A stretch of DNA of 29,531 nt, taken from positions 1-29,531 of the IMG/VR virus record IMGVR_UViG_648276670_000001; one strand, given 5' to 3'. This stretch comes from a virus. Taxonomy: Duplodnaviria > Heunggongvirae > Uroviricota > Caudoviricetes. Under the pieces are notes generated by a model. It saw only the letters and a program-made list of their open reading frames with translations. It did no database searches and was not told where the DNA came from. This document shows positions 4,273 through 23,845 of this stretch, piece after piece. How positions within the stretch are numbered: position 1 is the first letter of the stretch; every line of letters begins with the position of its first letter. The translations under genes and the position numbers were made by a program.

Positions 4273-5280
4273 ATGTCTGAGCAGACCATTGAAGTTAAAC
4301 ACGTTGTAGTTCACATTTTAGACAAACAACAAAATGGAGACGCTTCTGAGAGATTGAGTCCTGAAGAAGGTCTAGTTACTGAAGCCTCTCAGCGCCTTAT
4401 AAACGATATTTGTGCAAAATATGCAGGACGCACAGGTAAAGGTTATGGCTATTTTGAAGGCGATACGGATAACTATCCTATGGAACGAATGGCTGGGGAC
4501 TTTCTCGAAGGTGTTGATGATTTCTACCAAAGTTCCTGCCGAATGATGCATCACCTGACGGAACGTTCTCAGCGAGAAAACATGGCTACTGGTGGTTATG
4601 TTCTTTTTGCAAATATCGTGATAGGACACAATGAACACCTGTTGATAGCTATTGTAAGCGCTACCATTGGGTCCACTGTCACAGATGATTTTAACATCCA
4701 AGATAGTACCTATCTTGATATTGCTAAGCTGCGTATGGCTGGGCGCATTGACTTAACCGCGTGGGAAAGTGGCGCAGAGCGCTATATCAGTTTTCTTAAG
4801 GGGCAAGGTAATGTTTCAAACTATTTTAAACAGTTCCTAGGCTGTAATGATGTCTTAATCGCCAAACGAGAGTCTGAAAAGTTACGTGACGTTTTAAAAG
4901 CATTTGCGGCAGAGAAAGGACTTGACGGCGCTGAAAAAGATGCATTTCTTAAGAGTGCGTTTGAACACTTACATGCACTAAGTAAGGCTGGTGAACCACT
5001 TAGTCTTGAAACCCTTGTTAATGCCATTTGGCCCCAGGCTCCCGAGGAGTTATCTGGTAAACTTGCTGCTGAAGAGTTGGAGTTATCGGATGGCTTCGTT
5101 CCTGATGGTCGAGTCATTCGGGCTCTGGTATCTTTTAAAGGCAAGTCTAAATATTGGGAACTTAAGTTTGACCGGGAAGGGAAAACTGAAGGCTATATTG
5201 ATTATGATCCGGAAACAAATATTATCACCCTACGTAATGTACCTGAAGAATTTAGGGAAATGTGGATGACTGAGGTTTAA
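4273..5280 (+). CDS. NdpA/YejK-family nucleoid-associated protein homolog, 335 aa
   Basis: AAGGTGGA Shine-Dalgarno 8 nt upstream; full-length resemblance to the YejK/NdpA family (GGYVLFANIV, TYLDIAKLRMAGRIDLTAWESGAERYISFLKGQG, C-terminal NIITLRNVPEEFRE); AT-rich codon usage unlike the flanking phage genes. Confidence 0.85.
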   Translation: MSEQTIEVKHVVVHILDKQQNGDASERLSPEEGLVTEASQRLINDICAKYAGRTGKGYGYFEGDTDNYPMERMAGDFLEGVDDFYQSSCRMMHHLTERSQRENMATGGYVLFANIVIGHNEHLLIAIVSATIGSTVTDDFNIQDSTYLDIAKLRMAGRIDLTAWESGAERYISFLKGQGNVSNYFKQFLGCNDVLIAKRESEKLRDVLKAFAAEKGLDGAEKDAFLKSAFEHLHALSKAGEPLSLETLVNAIWPQAPEELSGKLAAEELELSDGFVPDGRVIRALVSFKGKSKYWELKFDREGKTEGYIDYDPETNIITLRNVPEEFREMWMTEV

Positions 5281-18299: not shown

Positions 18300-18550
18300 T
18301 GAAAGAATACCGCTATTCCGGCCCGGCCAGCGGCGTCACGCTGTCGGACGGAACCGAAATCCTGCTCTGGCCGGGGAAGACGGTTTCCCTGCCGGAGGAG
18401 CATGACTACGTGAAGGTACTGGTGGCGCTGAAGCATCTGACGCCGGTACCAGAAGATACTAAACCCGCCGTCACACCAGCTGTGCAGTCACCAAAGCGCA
18501 GAAGCAGCAGTGACAGCGAAGTGAAAACGGAGGACTCCCATGGCAGCTAA
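18299..18550 (+). CDS. Hypothetical phage protein, about 83 aa
   Basis: Short ORF tightly packed upstream of the sheath gene; overlaps the sheath start. Confidence 0.45.
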   Translation: MKEYRYSGPASGVTLSDGTEILLWPGKTVSLPEEHDYVKVLVALKHLTPVPEDTKPAVTPAVQSPKRRSSSDSEVKTEDSHGS

Positions 18551-19967
18551 CTATCTGCATGGCGTCGAAACCATTGAGGTGGAAAACGGAGCCCGCCCGG
18601 TTAAAACGGTGAAATCTGCCGTTATTGGCCTGATTGGTACCGCCCCGATGGGGGATGTCAATACGCTGGTACAGTGCCTGTCTGAGAAAGACGCTGCGGC
18701 ATTTGGCAGCCAGTTCACCGGCTTTACCATTCCGCAGGCGCTGGATGCGATTTATGACCATGGTGCAGGCACCGTTCTGGTCATTAACGTACTCGATCCG
18801 TCTGTGCATAAAACCGCTGTGGTCAGTGAGAATGTGTCGTTCGACAAGGCGACAGGCAGAGCCCGGCTGGCTAATCCGGTGGTCGCGCAGCTGGTACTGA
18901 AACCGGACAGCGACGGTCAGCCTTATGTTGAAGGTCAGGACTACTCGCTTGATGCACAGACCGGGGTGATTACTAACCTGGGTAAAAGCATTGCTGCAGA
19001 TGCAACGGTGAAGGCCAGCTATAACTATGCTGATCCGACCAAAGTCACCCCGGCTGATATCATCGGTACCGTTAACGCTGCAGGCAACCGTACCGGCATG
19101 AAGCTGCTTAACGACAGTTTTAACCTGTTTGGCTACTTCGCCAAAATCCTGATTGCTCCGGTATTCTGCACCCAGAACAGCGTCTCGGTTGAGCTTATCG
19201 CCATGGCTGAGAAACTGGGAGCAGTAACCTATATTGATGCGCCGGTTGGTACCACTTTTGCGCAGGCTCTGGCGGGACGTGGCCCGGAAGGCACCATTAA
19301 CTTTAATACCAGCTCTGACCGTGTCCGCCTGTGCTACCCGCATGTGAAGGTATATGACCCGGTGACGAACACGGAGCGTCTGGAGCCACTGAGCCAGCGT
19401 GCGGCGGGCCTGCGTGCCAAAGTCGACCTGGACAAAGGGTACTGGTGGTCATCCTCCAATCAGGAAATTCTGGGGATCACCGGCGTGGAGCGCCAGCTGT
19501 CGGCAATGATTGACGATCCGCAGAGCGAGGTGAACCTGCTTAACGAACAGGGGATCACCACGGTATTCAGCAGTTACGGCAGCGGCCTTCGTCTGTGGGG
19601 TAACCGGACGGCAGCATGGCCAACGGTCACCCATATGCGTAACTTTGAGAACGTTCGCCGCACCGGTGATGTGATCAACGAGTCCATTCGTTACTTCAGC
19701 CAGCAGTACATCGACATGCCGATTACTCAGGCGCTGATTGATGCACTGACGGAGTCGGTCAACGCCTACGGTCGCAAAATGACTGGTGATGGTGCGGTAC
19801 TGGGCTTCCGTTGCTGGTTTGATCCGGCCCGCAATCCGGAGACGGAGCTGGCCGCCGGGCACCTGTTGCTGAGCTACAAATATACGCCACCACCGCCGCT
19901 GGAGCGACTGACGTTTGAGACTGAAATCACCTCGGAATACCTGTTAACCCTGAAAGGGGGCAACTGA
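18540..19967 (+). CDS. Contractile tail sheath protein, 475 aa
   Basis: Size, position immediately before the tube gene, overall sheath-like sequence character. Confidence 0.85.
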   Translation: MAANYLHGVETIEVENGARPVKTVKSAVIGLIGTAPMGDVNTLVQCLSEKDAAAFGSQFTGFTIPQALDAIYDHGAGTVLVINVLDPSVHKTAVVSENVSFDKATGRARLANPVVAQLVLKPDSDGQPYVEGQDYSLDAQTGVITNLGKSIAADATVKASYNYADPTKVTPADIIGTVNAAGNRTGMKLLNDSFNLFGYFAKILIAPVFCTQNSVSVELIAMAEKLGAVTYIDAPVGTTFAQALAGRGPEGTINFNTSSDRVRLCYPHVKVYDPVTNTERLEPLSQRAAGLRAKVDLDKGYWWSSSNQEILGITGVERQLSAMIDDPQSEVNLLNEQGITTVFSSYGSGLRLWGNRTAAWPTVTHMRNFENVRRTGDVINESIRYFSQQYIDMPITQALIDALTESVNAYGRKMTGDGAVLGFRCWFDPARNPETELAAGHLLLSYKYTPPPPLERLTFETEITSEYLLTLKGGN

Positions 19968-20488
19968 TGTCAAAGATTGAGATAAACCGAATCACGAATG
20001 CCAACATCTATCTGGATGGTACTAACCTGCTGGGACGGGCTGAGGAAGTTAAACTCCCCGATGTCTCCATGATTATGCAGGAGCACAAGGCACTGGGGAT
20101 GGTGGGTAAGGTGGAACTCCCGGCTGGTTTTGACAAACTGGAAGGCGAAATCAAATGGAACAGCTTTTACCGCGATGCGATGTTGTCTGCCGCGAACCCG
20201 TACAAGTCGCTGGCGCTGCAGTGTCGCTCCAGCGTCCAGCGCTACAGCTCGCAGGGGCTGATCGACGAAATCCCGCTGGTCACCTTCCTGACAATTATGT
20301 TCAAGAAGAACCCGCTGGGGACGTTCAAACAGCACGAGAACGCCGAGTTCTCCAGTAGCTTCACCTGCACGTATATCAGACAGGTACTGGGTGGTGAAGA
20401 GTTGCTGCAACTGGACTATCTGGCCAACATCTTCCGCGTCGGTGGCGTTGATCAACTGACTGACTATCGAATCAATATCGGGGGCTGA
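19967..20488 (+). CDS. Tail tube protein, 173 aa
   Basis: Size and position directly after the sheath gene with overlapping start. Confidence 0.8.
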   Translation: MSKIEINRITNANIYLDGTNLLGRAEEVKLPDVSMIMQEHKALGMVGKVELPAGFDKLEGEIKWNSFYRDAMLSAANPYKSLALQCRSSVQRYSSQGLIDEIPLVTFLTIMFKKNPLGTFKQHENAEFSSSFTCTYIRQVLGGEELLQLDYLANIFRVGGVDQLTDYRINIGG

Positions 20489-20490
20489 CG

Positions 20491-20772
20491 GTGAGTGTTG
20501 AACTGACTGACAAAGGAGGGCGATGTGCGTCACTGGGCATGTCAAATGGTACGTGGTTTACCCTCCTTGATATTCCGGGGGTGGAGACCCTCTTTAATAC
20601 CCGTAAAACCAATGACCCGATTGACTGCACACGTTCAAAGGCCCGCAAACTGGCCGATTTGATTGAAGCATGGGAGCCGCCCGACCAGTGGTTCTCCGGC
20701 ACCGGCAAATCTGAGGGAAAGGCGCTTCTCATCGCTTTCCTGCGTAACTGCAAGGGTTTTCGCACTTGCTGA
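20491..20772 (+). CDS. Hypothetical protein, 93 aa
   Basis: GTG start 2 nt after the tube stop; followed by a GC hairpin; coding status uncertain. Confidence 0.4.
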   Translation: MSVELTDKGGRCASLGMSNGTWFTLLDIPGVETLFNTRKTNDPIDCTRSKARKLADLIEAWEPPDQWFSGTGKSEGKALLIAFLRNCKGFRTC

Positions 20773-20778
20773 CATCAC

Positions 20779-20800
20779 AGGGGCTCCGGCCCCTTCTTCT
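20779..20800 (+). terminator. Candidate weak intrinsic terminator
   Basis: Hairpin AGGGGC-TCCG-GCCCCT (20779-20794) followed by TCTTCTT. Confidence 0.3.
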
Positions 20801-20869
20801 TAATCCCCTTTAATATCCGTCACGTCCACCGCCAGACATACTGCTCTGAATTTACAAAGGAGTATGATC

Positions 20870-21205
20870 ATGTCACAGACCCAGTCCGATACTTTTACGC
20901 TGTCTTATCCTTTCACCACTGCTGCAGGTACCAGAATTGAACAGATTGAACTGAAACGCCTGACAGTAAAAGACCTGAAGCAGGTGCGCAAAATCAACAA
21001 AGACCCGACAGACTGGGACGAACCACTGATTGCCCGTAGCACCGGTATCCTCCCGGAAGACCTCGATAACATGGATCTTGCCGACTATATGGAGCTGCAG
21101 AAACGATTTCAGAAAATCACTGGGCTGGGCAAGAGCGACAAAAACACTGATGCAGGTGCAGGGCCTGCTGGCGAGATGGTTCAGGTTTCAACCGGGGGAG
21201 ATTGA
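20870..21205 (+). CDS. Tail assembly chaperone (P2 gpE / lambda gpG analogue)
   Basis: AAGGAG Shine-Dalgarno 7 nt upstream of ATG 20870; located between tube and tape-measure genes; an overlapping downstream ORF in another frame suggests a frameshift extension. Confidence 0.65.
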   Translation: MSQTQSDTFTLSYPFTTAAGTRIEQIELKRLTVKDLKQVRKINKDPTDWDEPLIARSTGILPEDLDNMDLADYMELQKRFQKITGLGKSDKNTDAGAGPAGEMVQVSTGGD

Positions 21206-21287
21206 TGCCCTCGATACTGACGATCTGGAGATGTGGCTGGAGCAGGCTGAAGAGCAAATCAAAAGCGAGTTCGGCGACAATCAGTAA
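20870..21287 (+). CDS. Predicted frameshift-extended chaperone product (E+E-prime-like); shift to the +1 (equivalently -2) frame near 21194-21198
   Basis: ORF 21030-21287 overlaps the 3' end of the chaperone ORF; its tail EIDALDTDDLEMWLEQAEEQIKSEFGDNQ looks protein-like; run GGGGG at 21194-21198 lies two codons before the chaperone stop. Confidence 0.45.
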
Positions 21288-21300
21288 CAACGTATCACTT

Positions 21301-21323
21301 AACAGCCGCCAGTCGCGGCTGTT
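21301..21323 (+). other. Perfect 9-bp stem hairpin upstream of the tape-measure gene
   Basis: AACAGCCGC-CAGTC-GCGGCTGTT; a T7 run follows only about 30 nt downstream at 21353-21359, so not a canonical terminator. Confidence 0.3.
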
Positions 21324-21379
21324 CTGCATGGGTTTCAGACACTTCCCTTCCGTTTTTTTGCTTTCAGAGGATAGCCACC

Positions 21380-23845
21380 GTGGCCAGTGAATTTTCAGTC
21401 GGCGTCATTATTGGCGGCATTGTCGGGAGCAGCTTCCGCTCAGCCGTCAGTGGCACCCGACGCGCCCTTGATTCCCTTGGTGATACCTCCCGCCGTCTGC
21501 AGGAACGCCAGAATGCCTTAACCCGGGCAACAGAACGTTATGGTCAACTGGGTTCTTCCCGGATGCAGCATCTCAACAGCGAGTTGCTGCGGGTAAGCCG
21601 CACCATGGAGCAAATTGAACGTCAGCAGCGCCGTCTGTCAGCAGTATCAGCCACCGGTGATGCGTTGAAGGCTAACCGCCTGGCGCTCTATGGTCAGGGT
21701 GCAGAAACCTATGCTATTGGCAGAACGCTGGGCGCACCGGTCATGGCCTCGGTTAAACAATATGCCTCGTTTGAATCACAGTTGCGGGATATCAGTGTCA
21801 CAGGAGACCTGGATGCAAAACAGGAACGTGCAATTGGCCAGGCTATCAGACAGGCCTCGCTGAAGGTTAACCAACTGCAGGAGTCTCTGTTAGGGGGAGT
21901 CGGACAATTAGTTGCTGATGGTATGGCCCCCGAACGGGCAGCAACGTTTGCAGAGATGCTTGGAAAGACCGCTACAGCAACCAAAGCCGATATGACCGAC
22001 CTTGCCAAAATGACTTATGCCTTCAGCGATGCACTCAGAATCACTGATGCGAAAGAACTTGAACAGGCGTTTGGTATTGCGGCAACAGGAGCCAAACTTG
22101 GGTCATTTGAGCTGAAGGATATGGCAAAAGCATTACCCGGTATGGCTAAAGCCTTCGCTGCTCGTGGTATTTATGGAAAAGATGCGATTACCCAGATTGT
22201 TGCCAGTCTGGAGGTCGGTAAAGGTAGTGGCTCTGCAGAGGAAGCGGTCACCAATATGTCCAACTGGCTGGCAGCAATGGGCCGCGGAGATACCATCCAG
22301 AAATATGCTAAAGCCGGGGTGGATTACCAGGGGTCAATGCAGAATTACGTCGCTCAGGGTTTTTCGCAGTACGAAGCTTCACTGATGATTGCCAACCGTT
22401 TTATCGACAGTAAAGGCAAAGCGTTCTTGCAGCAATGGAAAGCTGCAGGAGCAAGAGGCGATCAGGAAGGTCAGCAGAAACTCATGGAGTCATTTGGTCT
22501 GGCTGAGGTCTTTACCGATATTCAGACTGTCAACCATTTACTGTCAATGCGACAGGGCTGGGATAAATACCTTTCCAGTAAGCAGGAAATGAATGCTCCG
22601 GCTGCAATTTCTACCCTGGATAAGGATGCTGCAAAGCAGAATGATACGCTTGAAGGTCGCTGGCGCAGAATGCAGATCGGCTTTAATGATTCTGCTATCA
22701 GCATCGGGCAATCCTTGCGTCCGGCTTTGCTCCAGTTGGGTGAAACATTTATTCCTTTAATGGACAGTGTTGGCAAATGGATAGCGGCAAATCCGCAGCT
22801 CGTCAGCAGCACCATAAAGGTTGTGGGCGCATTACTCGCTTTCAGGATGGCCACTATCGGTCTCAAGCTTGGGCTGAATCTCCTTCTTTCCCCCTTTGTA
22901 AGCGTCTGGAAAAATGCTGTTTTACTTCGGGCCAACTGGCTTCGTCTGACGCTCGCACTGGGGGAAGGCGGTAAACTCCGCTGGCTGGTGACAGGCTTTG
23001 GTGCTGTCGCCAGAGGAGCCAGAACACTGGGTGGTGTGCTCTCAGGGGGGCTGGTTCGCGGAATTATGAGCGCCGGGCGTGCCGTTCTCTGGATTGGCCG
23101 GGCGCTGCTGATGAATCCCATCGGTCTCGTTATCACCGCCGTCGCGGCAGCAGCTTACCTTATCTACCGCAACTGGGGCGCAGTCAGTAGCTGGTTTAAA
23201 CAGCGCTGGGCTGACATTCAGGAAGCCTTTAACGGCGGCATCGTGGGAACTGGTAAACTGCTGGTTAACTGGTCTCCGGCTGGTCTGCTTTATAAAGCCT
23301 TTGCGGCTGCGCTGAAATATCTCGGCGTTGATCTGCCGGCGAAATTCACCGACTTCGGTGGTCATCTTATTGACGGGTTGATAAATGGCATCAGAAACAA
23401 ATGGGCGTCACTCAAAACCAGCGTAACCGGAATGGGTGACAGCATCAGTGACTGGTTCAGCGAAAAGCTGGGCATCCATTCACCGAGTCGCGTGTTTATG
23501 GGCTTTGGTGACAATATCGCGCAGGGTGCCGCCATTGGCCTGCAACGGACCACTCCGCTTGCTGCACTGGCCGGGCAGCGCCTGGCCGCTGAAATGACAC
23601 CGGATGTTCCCCGTATCCCGTCGCCGGAAATCATGGCTGCCGGATATTCAGGCCGTGGTGCAACGGCAACTGGCGGTGGAGCGTCTGGCGGTATCCAGGT
23701 CAGCTTTAATCCTCAGTTTTTCCTCAATGGTAAGGAAACCGCAGCGCCTGCCGGGCTGACTGGTGCCCTGAATATGAGCCTGCATGAGCTGGAAAAAATG
23801 CTGGAGCGTCTGCTGGCTCAGAAACAACGTAAGGAGTACAGCTGA
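21380..23845 (+). CDS. Tail tape measure protein, 821 aa
   Basis: GTG start with AGAGGA Shine-Dalgarno; large helical protein with a central hydrophobic segment, directly downstream of the chaperone pair. Confidence 0.8.
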   Translation: MASEFSVGVIIGGIVGSSFRSAVSGTRRALDSLGDTSRRLQERQNALTRATERYGQLGSSRMQHLNSELLRVSRTMEQIERQQRRLSAVSATGDALKANRLALYGQGAETYAIGRTLGAPVMASVKQYASFESQLRDISVTGDLDAKQERAIGQAIRQASLKVNQLQESLLGGVGQLVADGMAPERAATFAEMLGKTATATKADMTDLAKMTYAFSDALRITDAKELEQAFGIAATGAKLGSFELKDMAKALPGMAKAFAARGIYGKDAITQIVASLEVGKGSGSAEEAVTNMSNWLAAMGRGDTIQKYAKAGVDYQGSMQNYVAQGFSQYEASLMIANRFIDSKGKAFLQQWKAAGARGDQEGQQKLMESFGLAEVFTDIQTVNHLLSMRQGWDKYLSSKQEMNAPAAISTLDKDAAKQNDTLEGRWRRMQIGFNDSAISIGQSLRPALLQLGETFIPLMDSVGKWIAANPQLVSSTIKVVGALLAFRMATIGLKLGLNLLLSPFVSVWKNAVLLRANWLRLTLALGEGGKLRWLVTGFGAVARGARTLGGVLSGGLVRGIMSAGRAVLWIGRALLMNPIGLVITAVAAAAYLIYRNWGAVSSWFKQRWADIQEAFNGGIVGTGKLLVNWSPAGLLYKAFAAALKYLGVDLPAKFTDFGGHLIDGLINGIRNKWASLKTSVTGMGDSISDWFSEKLGIHSPSRVFMGFGDNIAQGAAIGLQRTTPLAALAGQRLAAEMTPDVPRIPSPEIMAAGYSGRGATATGGGASGGIQVSFNPQFFLNGKETAAPAGLTGALNMSLHELEKMLERLLAQKQRKEYS

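Follow-up and report, generated by a model that had tools for sequence, protein, structure and literature searches.

How ribosomes would pass from one reading frame into another at the 3' end of a tail assembly chaperone gene is the question raised by a stretch of caudovirus DNA of 29,531 nucleotides (nt), positions 1 to 29,531 of the IMG/VR record IMGVR_UViG_648276670_000001, the whole of which is referred to here as the window. An open reading frame (ORF) that extends from 21030 to 21287 overlaps the chaperone ORF over positions 21030-21205 and lies one base forward of it (+1, equivalently -2). A preliminary description of this DNA had reported the same relation between the frames, which was confirmed, and had placed the slip on a GGGGG run, with re-pairing of tRNA-Gly. 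The comparison with related loci points most probably to a different site, a +1 frameshift at CGA UUU C (21104-21110), 87 bases upstream of the G-run, that would generate a fusion of 138 amino acids (aa) similar to gpE+E' of phage P2. Both the slip as a +1 event in the P site and the shifting of ribosomes at this place are deduced by comparison. A conserved +1 shift at this site is the best-supported account; the preliminary description saw a real and correctly framed feature, and assigned to it a wrong slip site and a wrong tRNA.

The relatives used were gathered from viral contigs (77, with 58-100% protein identity), reference genomes (39) and several deposited phages. Conservation of the +1 frame in related phages, proposed earlier as a check, was observed: the frame is open in 112 of the 126 related loci, the remainder being of the -1 type or fused in frame, and it is under purifying selection. 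The change of frame was followed by counting synonymous and non-synonymous variants by frame on 55 unique enteric sequences. Over the segment 20870-21106 the zero frame carries 146 synonymous and 93 non-synonymous variants, and the +1 frame 62 and 207, with nine stop columns. The counts over 21140-21181 are 5 and 25 for the zero frame and 17 and 11 for the +1 frame, and over 21182-21202, the segment that holds the G-run, they are 0 and 12, with stops, for the zero frame and 7 and 1 for the +1 frame. By about position 21140, well upstream of the G-run, purifying selection has passed from the zero frame to +1. The -1 frame was also considered as the source of an extension. Its ORF is at 21202-21390, the stretch by which it runs past the chaperone stop ranges among relatives from 1 to more than 400 codons, and the variants beyond the chaperone stop are 10 synonymous versus 46 non-synonymous; unconserved and broken by stops in relatives, this candidate was dropped. 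The earlier judgement that, of these two frames, the +1 one alone resembles protein stands and extends to its conservation, and the frame comparison supports the view that the extension would be reached in +1 and not by the usual -1 shift.

The place of the shift can be bounded by the stops of both frames. For each locus the permissible interval runs from the last stop of the extension frame to the stop of the chaperone frame, and it was determined on the 74 unique +1-type loci compared, from Enterobacterales, Burkholderiales, Pseudomonas and Neisseriaceae. In relatives from Ralstonia, Pandoraea, Verminephrobacter and Pseudomonas, only 8 nt separate the opening of the +1 frame from a TTT codon; in loci L103 and L125 the stop of the zero frame follows that codon by 24 nt, and in several Neisseriaceae loci the entire permissible interval is just 50-56 nt. 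Hence, the stops that flank TTT in the relatives define a shared interval of approximately 35 nt, about 21099-21133. Exactly one in-frame TTT followed by C is present in the interval of 73 of the 74 loci, always at the homologous codon (F80), which encodes the Phe closing the chaperone domain. TTT_C is the only motif conserved within the permissible interval, and no heptamer of the type X_XXY_YYZ was found in 21099-21140. The neighbouring codons differ among lineages, since enterics read CGA TTT CAG (CGG TTT CAG in L099), Burkholderiales CGA TTT CTG, Pseudomonas GTG TTT CGG, Methylotenera ACA TTT CAG, Neisseria and Kingella TGG or ACC TTT CGC/CGT, Polaromonas-like loci GCG or TCG TTT CAA, and BcepMu TCC TTT CGC. 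Both CGA and TTT are invariant in 58 of 58 unique enteric sequences, while synonymous variation is seen at all the other Arg and Phe codons of the gene, and CGA represents about 6% of the Arg codons in the window. The GC-rich relatives keep TTT although this triplet accounts for 0-30% of their Phe codons. By these alignments TTT_C is conserved at the nucleotide level.

According to the mechanism proposed, most ribosomes would stay in frame and terminate at 21203-21205, giving the short form of 111 aa. In a minority of them the P-site tRNA-Phe would slip +1 from UUU (21107-21109) to UUC (21108-21110). The anticodon of tRNA-Phe is GAA, and the slip would exchange the G·U wobble at the third position for a G-C pair. 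Reading would continue in +1 from 21111 (AGA AAA UCA ...) to the TAA at 21285-21287, and the 138-aa product would consist of the chaperone domain, a linker of about 19 residues and a domain resembling E' of P2; the junction peptide predicted by the TTT_C model after Glu-C digestion is LQKRFRKSLGWARATKTLMQVQGLLARWFRFQPGE. A -2 event would be incompatible with the TTT_C site, because nothing re-pairs two bases back, and transcriptional slippage was set aside because a run of three T is probably too short. Sites of the UUU_Ynn type are especially prone to +1 shifts in bacteria even without a stop codon, as in argI and YopN-TyeA, and influenza PA-X uses UCC_UUU_CGU (PMC5009743). The rare CGA that would occupy the E site, conserved in the enteric and Burkholderiales clades, may be a stimulator of the shift. 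A low efficiency would suit a chaperone pair with a minor long form; in lambda the ratio is 30:1, and the efficiency in P2 is 2-3 times higher (PMC5009743). The roles of the two forms are proposed by analogy with lambda gpG/gpGT, as reviewed in PMC5009743, and with P2 gpE/gpE+E': the tape measure protein, presumably the client of the chaperone, would be bound by short and long form alike, and the tube protein would be brought in by the extension of the long form, the rarer of the two.

The nature of the extension was studied on the predicted fusion (80 + 58 = 138 aa), which reads ...DYMELQKRF-RKSLGWARATKTLMQVQGLLARWFRFQPGEIDAL...GDNQ. The fusion matches PF10109 with E=1.2e-23 (83 bits versus a cut-off of 25). 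The match of its residues 100-132 to PF06528, with 17.5 bits and E=0.003, falls below the cut-off of 23, and the +1-type relatives from Neisseria, Kingella and Polaromonas score 26.3-39.7 bits, above that cut-off. The E'-like cores of the window, P2 and Pasteurella align cleanly, and over its whole length the fusion can be aligned both to P2 gpE+E' and to the -1 fusions from Pasteurellaceae. The extension is very likely homologous to P2 E' by transitivity, because the cores align unambiguously and the relatives score above the cut-off. The chaperone gene itself is homologous to gene E of P2, and its short form corresponds to P2 gpE. A scan of the chaperone, the 45-aa ORF discussed below and a fusion against NCBIfam gave no matches, and no sequence relative of the fusion was found among solved structures.

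Several points weigh against a shift at TTT_C. No classical +1 stimulator was found: a Shine-Dalgarno-like sequence is absent from the few nt upstream of TTT, and the 90 nt from 21111 to 21200 fold no better than shuffled sequences (z=+0.58). The zero-frame codon in the A site is CAG in the window and CTG, CGG, CGC or CAA in relatives, and CAG is a common codon in E. coli. The first codon read in +1, AGA, is rare in E. coli, which would disfavour the shift. The Phe encoded here is conserved in the protein as well, so that the conservation of the codon would be driven in part by the protein and not by the RNA. One +1 locus, L110 of Pseudomonas brassicacearum, lacks TTT_C and reads GTG TTG CGG instead; this locus may be a decayed prophage or use another site. 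Finally, the frames cannot be told apart by the variant counts over 21111-21139 (9 synonymous and 19 non-synonymous in the zero frame, 12 and 17 in the +1 frame).

The counts over 21111-21139 also leave space for a +1 shift elsewhere in 21099-21140, for instance on AAA_A at 21113-21116 or on the A-run at 21140-21144. The tRNA-Lys is slippery in E. coli, and both A-runs would permit +1 re-pairing in the window. However, relatives carry CAA GTC or CTC ATC in place of the first A-run and GAC GAA AAC or AAC CAG GGC in place of the second one, and TTT_C alone is common to all lineages, so this alternative is an improbable one.

Translation of the extension as a separate small protein of 45 aa, initiated at the ATG at 21150 with no frameshift, would agree with the coding sequence (CDS) that the Prokaryotic Genome Annotation Pipeline (PGAP) calls in some genomes, the ATG being present in the window. 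Close relatives carry ACG or ATT in place of this ATG, which is not preceded by a Shine-Dalgarno-like sequence. Independent initiation at 21150 is unlikely, since the relatives share no start codon in the extension frame, and loci L086 and L112 lack one altogether from the upstream stop to the conserved core. In addition, the selection on the +1 frame in 21140-21181 already includes 10 nt upstream of the ATG. E' of P2, the very likely homologue of the extension, is reportedly made only as a frameshift fusion and essential, as Christie et al. are said to have described in 2002, and the P2 record likewise annotates E' as made solely as a frameshift fusion (AF063097 annotation). There is accordingly small probability in a product started at 21150, and the 45-aa CDS is most likely an annotation stand-in for an unrecognised frameshift extension. 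Extension and CDS are treated unevenly in public records: in NZ_CP028744.1, an identical prophage, the extension has no annotation, the long form of the chaperone is never annotated in these prophages, the database names cover the short forms alone, and no match under the extension was annotated as a frameshift product in the phage collection.

The preliminary description was correct in that GGGGG is present at 21194-21198, and the run would permit re-pairing in the window sequence, either by a +1 slip of tRNA-Gly from GGG (21194-96) to GGG (21195-97) or by a -2 slip from GGA (21197-99), with a product reading ...VQVSTG(G)EIDALD.... GGA is a rare codon in E. coli, and Mu provides a verified -2 shift on a G-run. 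The chaperone frame of the window ends ...GTT CAG GTT TCA ACC GGG GGA GAT TGA, so that the run is read GGG GGA GAT TGA in this frame, and its phase is unlike that of the Mu site. In widespread relatives the chaperone frame does not reach the run. It ends at a TAG equivalent to 21182-84 in KP12, in L016-L032 and in a group with 88% identity, and at a TAG equivalent to 21140-42 in L048/L049; these stops give short forms of 104 aa and 90 aa, which occur on 161 and 914 contigs, respectively, and are not rare mutants. The run is missing in L081 and L082 (which read CCG AGT GAG), in L084 and L085, and in the relatives from Salmonella and Ralstonia, and their +1 frame is still conserved and keeps ...LLARWFRF(Q/P)PSE...; distant relatives also lack it. 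Its first G varies as G/T/A, being the silent third base of a Pro codon when read in +1, and every zero-frame substitution in 21182-21202 is non-synonymous or creates a stop. The part very likely homologous to E' (LARWFRFQPGEID...) starts at 21168, upstream of the run, and a shift at the run would hence lose LARWFRFQP, the best conserved part of the E'-like domain. By the positions of the stops, the loss in relatives, the variation by codon position and the start of the E' homology, the G-run is on comparative grounds excluded as the shift site, and a slip of tRNA-Gly there is highly unlikely. In the window GGGGG (GGGGG/CCCCC, both strands) is depleted and not enriched, with 41 occurrences versus 71 ± 11 expected from 100 dinucleotide-preserving shuffles, all of which had at least 41.

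Protein-database entries exist that would favour the G-run, as those derived from assemblies one G shorter (P0003-P0005, P0009) give exactly the fusion expected from it. They belong to a set of fused proteins of 138 aa (P0001-P0012), mostly from Logan assemblies, whose frames break at the A5 run (equivalent to 21140-44), at the G5 run (21194-98) or with several frame changes, and the set was rejected both as annotated frameshift products and as natural fusions. The entries resemble homopolymer indels and are likely indel errors, uninformative on the site; the fused form with the G5 deletion occurs on at least 20 contigs. Deletions are also seen in some of the genomic loci. In L088 (Apirhabdus apintestini CP138906.1, about 1201-1605) the loss of 1 nt, 17 nt upstream of TTT_C, joins chaperone and extension in frame, so that only the long form could be made, and L079 and L083 have each lost 1 nt next to or inside the G-run; in these three loci the deletions may be genuine mutations, signs of prophage decay or errors of sequencing. 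That no long form is made, the +1 ORF being a relic or a chance open frame, is barely credible, for the frame stays open under purifying selection in Enterobacterales, Burkholderiales, Pseudomonas, Neisseriaceae and further groups, and the extension is very likely a homologue of P2 E', reportedly essential.

The proposed +1 shift at TTT_C is located among tail genes. The window belongs to an E. coli prophage that is BcepMu-like and has a tail of the P2 type, and it carries a contractile-tail module that spans 18540-23845 (Table 1). The tube gene lies upstream of the chaperone gene, with one extra small ORF after it, and the tape measure gene downstream. PGAP uses the ATG at 20870 as the chaperone start, and there is a second in-frame ATG at 20864; the ORF is named 'phage tail assembly protein' by PGAP in identical E. 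coli prophages. The stretch 20400-21600 is matched in 642 of 5426 complete E. coli genomes (about 12%), 27 of them at 99% identity or more, and in three deposited phages, among them PhiKM, classified in Bcepmuvirus. The extra small ORF has a weak, sub-threshold match to DUF7739 (E=1.6e-5, 25.8 bits versus a cut-off of 27), is labelled hypothetical in KP12, PhiKM and E. coli prophages, and is without counterpart at that position in P2. Between this ORF and the chaperone gene, within what is expected to be a single tail operon, there is a terminator-like hairpin at 20779-20804, AGGGGCTCCGGCCCCT followed by TCTTCTTAAT. A perfect hairpin of 7 bp, CAGCCGC-CAGTC-GCGGCTG, occupies 21303-21321, in the gap just downstream of the extension and ahead of the tape measure gene; it lacks a T-run, and the terminator scan did not return it.

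Table 1. Positions in the window of the tail genes, the predicted extension and the sequence elements discussed.
Feature	Position	Strand	Description
Sheath gene	18540-19967		PF04984/PF17482
Tail tube gene	19967-20488	+	PF04985 Phage_tube, E=9.6e-53
Small ORF, 93 aa	20491-20772		Between tube and chaperone genes
Tail assembly chaperone, short zero-frame form, 111 aa	20870-21205	+	PF10109 Phage_TAC_7, E=4.6e-22, residues 10-84
Proposed +1 shift site CGA TTT C	21104-21110	+	Arg-Phe codons, then C of CAG
Predicted +1 extension after shift	21111-21287	+	58 codons and TAA stop; reads RKSLGWARATKTLMQVQGLLARWFRFQPGEIDALDTDDLEMWLEQAEEQIKSEFGDNQ
45-aa CDS of PGAP, 'GpE family phage tail protein'	21150-21287	+	In some identical prophages (NZ_CP155528.1; L003 2251-2388)
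E'-like core	21168-21266	+	PF06528 Phage_P2_GpE; LARWFRFQPGEIDALDTDDLEMWLEQAEEQIKS
GGGGG run	21194-21198	+	Within Pro-Gly-Glu codons CCG GGG GAG of the extension
Tape measure gene	21380-23845	+	PF10145 PhageMin_Tail, E=1.2e-15; PGAP 'phage tail tape measure protein'

The record of BcepMu (AY539836; L127 4603-5364) offers a related case of annotation, since gp42 and gp43 are entered there as a frameshift pair similar to lambda G/T. The E'-like ORF is gp42 (4859-5062), in the +1 frame of gp41, a PF10109 chaperone with TCC TTT CGC, and gp43 is an Arg/Gly/Ala-rich reading in the frame of gp41 downstream of its stop, and looks non-coding. In the paper on KS10 no frameshift site was found (PMC2628397), and the literature searched gave neither a described frameshift in BcepMu-like chaperones nor a TTT_C shift for the PF10109 family.

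The long form of the chaperone is missing from public records, as PGAP omits the extension or calls the 45-aa fragment, and a rule such as 'in-frame TTT_C at Phage_TAC_7 domain end, extension +1' would let pipelines annotate the fusion. If the shift at TTT_C is true, it would constitute a phylogenetically broad and naturally selected UUU_C +1 site in bacteria, and the +1 form would occur in about 12% of the complete genomes of E. coli, as well as in BcepMu-like phages from beta- and gammaproteobacteria. Moreover, -1 and +1 solutions, and perhaps the -2 of Mu, could be compared directly in one protein family. Tail chaperone frameshifting is well known in general and the gain is incremental; Xu, Hendrix and Duda are said to have described a conserved tail chaperone frameshift in 2004.

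The closest of the known systems is gpE/gpE+E' of P2, encoded in the FETUD operon. Both share the PF10109 N-terminal family, an extension core of the form WF..P.E...L...L..W, the position of the gene between tube and tape measure, a fusion of similar length (142 aa in P2 and 138 aa predicted for the window), and a junction at a Phe codon at the end of the chaperone domain. They differ in that P2 shifts -1 on T_TTT_TTG, whereas the extension of the window lies in +1 after TTT_C, with no heptamer. The -1 relatives in Pasteurellaceae and Moraxella use G_GGA_AAG, which we take to be the heptamer of lambda. With lambda gpG/gpGT the window has in common two products of overlapping frames upstream of the tape measure gene, with a rare long form (PMC5009743), and a second frame (overlap 21030-21205) without conserved start codon, as in the lambda class; the direction (+1) and the type of site are different, and the likeness is one of logic. 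Mu gp41/gp41-42 is the tail chaperone of the Mu-type transposable phage, and its extension lies in the same +1 (= -2) frame. The -2 tail chaperone frameshift of Mu is verified, and the directions -1, -2 (Mu) and +1 have all been recorded (PMC5009743). Nevertheless, the analogy with the G-run of Mu implied by the preliminary description is not supported: Mu shifts at CGG GGG CGA, a run of five Gs of which the last three make up a zero-frame codon, followed by CGA and close to the stop, whereas the run of the window, GGG GGA GAT, is in another phase, without CGA, unconserved, and past the zero-frame stop in many relatives. Mu gp41 is placed in PF10109 by the Pfam family description alone, and the queries with E' peptides or the chaperone N-domain gave no tblastn match in the Mu locus.

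The UUU_Y sites of argI, YopN-TyeA and PA-X occur in unrelated genes and resemble the proposed site in that UUU in the P site followed by a pyrimidine lets tRNA-Phe re-pair in +1. The TCC TTT CGC of BcepMu nearly matches the UCC_UUU_CGU cassette of PA-X; PA-X needs a rare codon in the A site, unlike the common CAG, CTG or CGC present here. Forward shifts are also annotated in the chaperones of actinobacteriophages (SEA-PHAGES), with 350 forward versus 2368 backward shifts in the training set of PRFect, whose forward slippery motif is 'three or four identical bases' at most (PMC10885494); these phages have other hosts, and the likeness is one of annotation. As the heptamers TTTTTTG and GGGAAAG for -1 and TTT_C for +1 are found within the same protein family, the comparison of sequences indicates that the recoding solution has changed more than once in it. 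It is rather likely that the PF10109 family with E'-like extensions has switched its recoding direction several times, among -1 on T_TTT_TTG in P2, -1 on G_GGA_AAG and +1 on UUU_C, the +1 form being widespread and unannotated and working without a hungry codon, a Shine-Dalgarno-like element or a structure, and the -2 shift of Mu on its G-run may also be part of that series.

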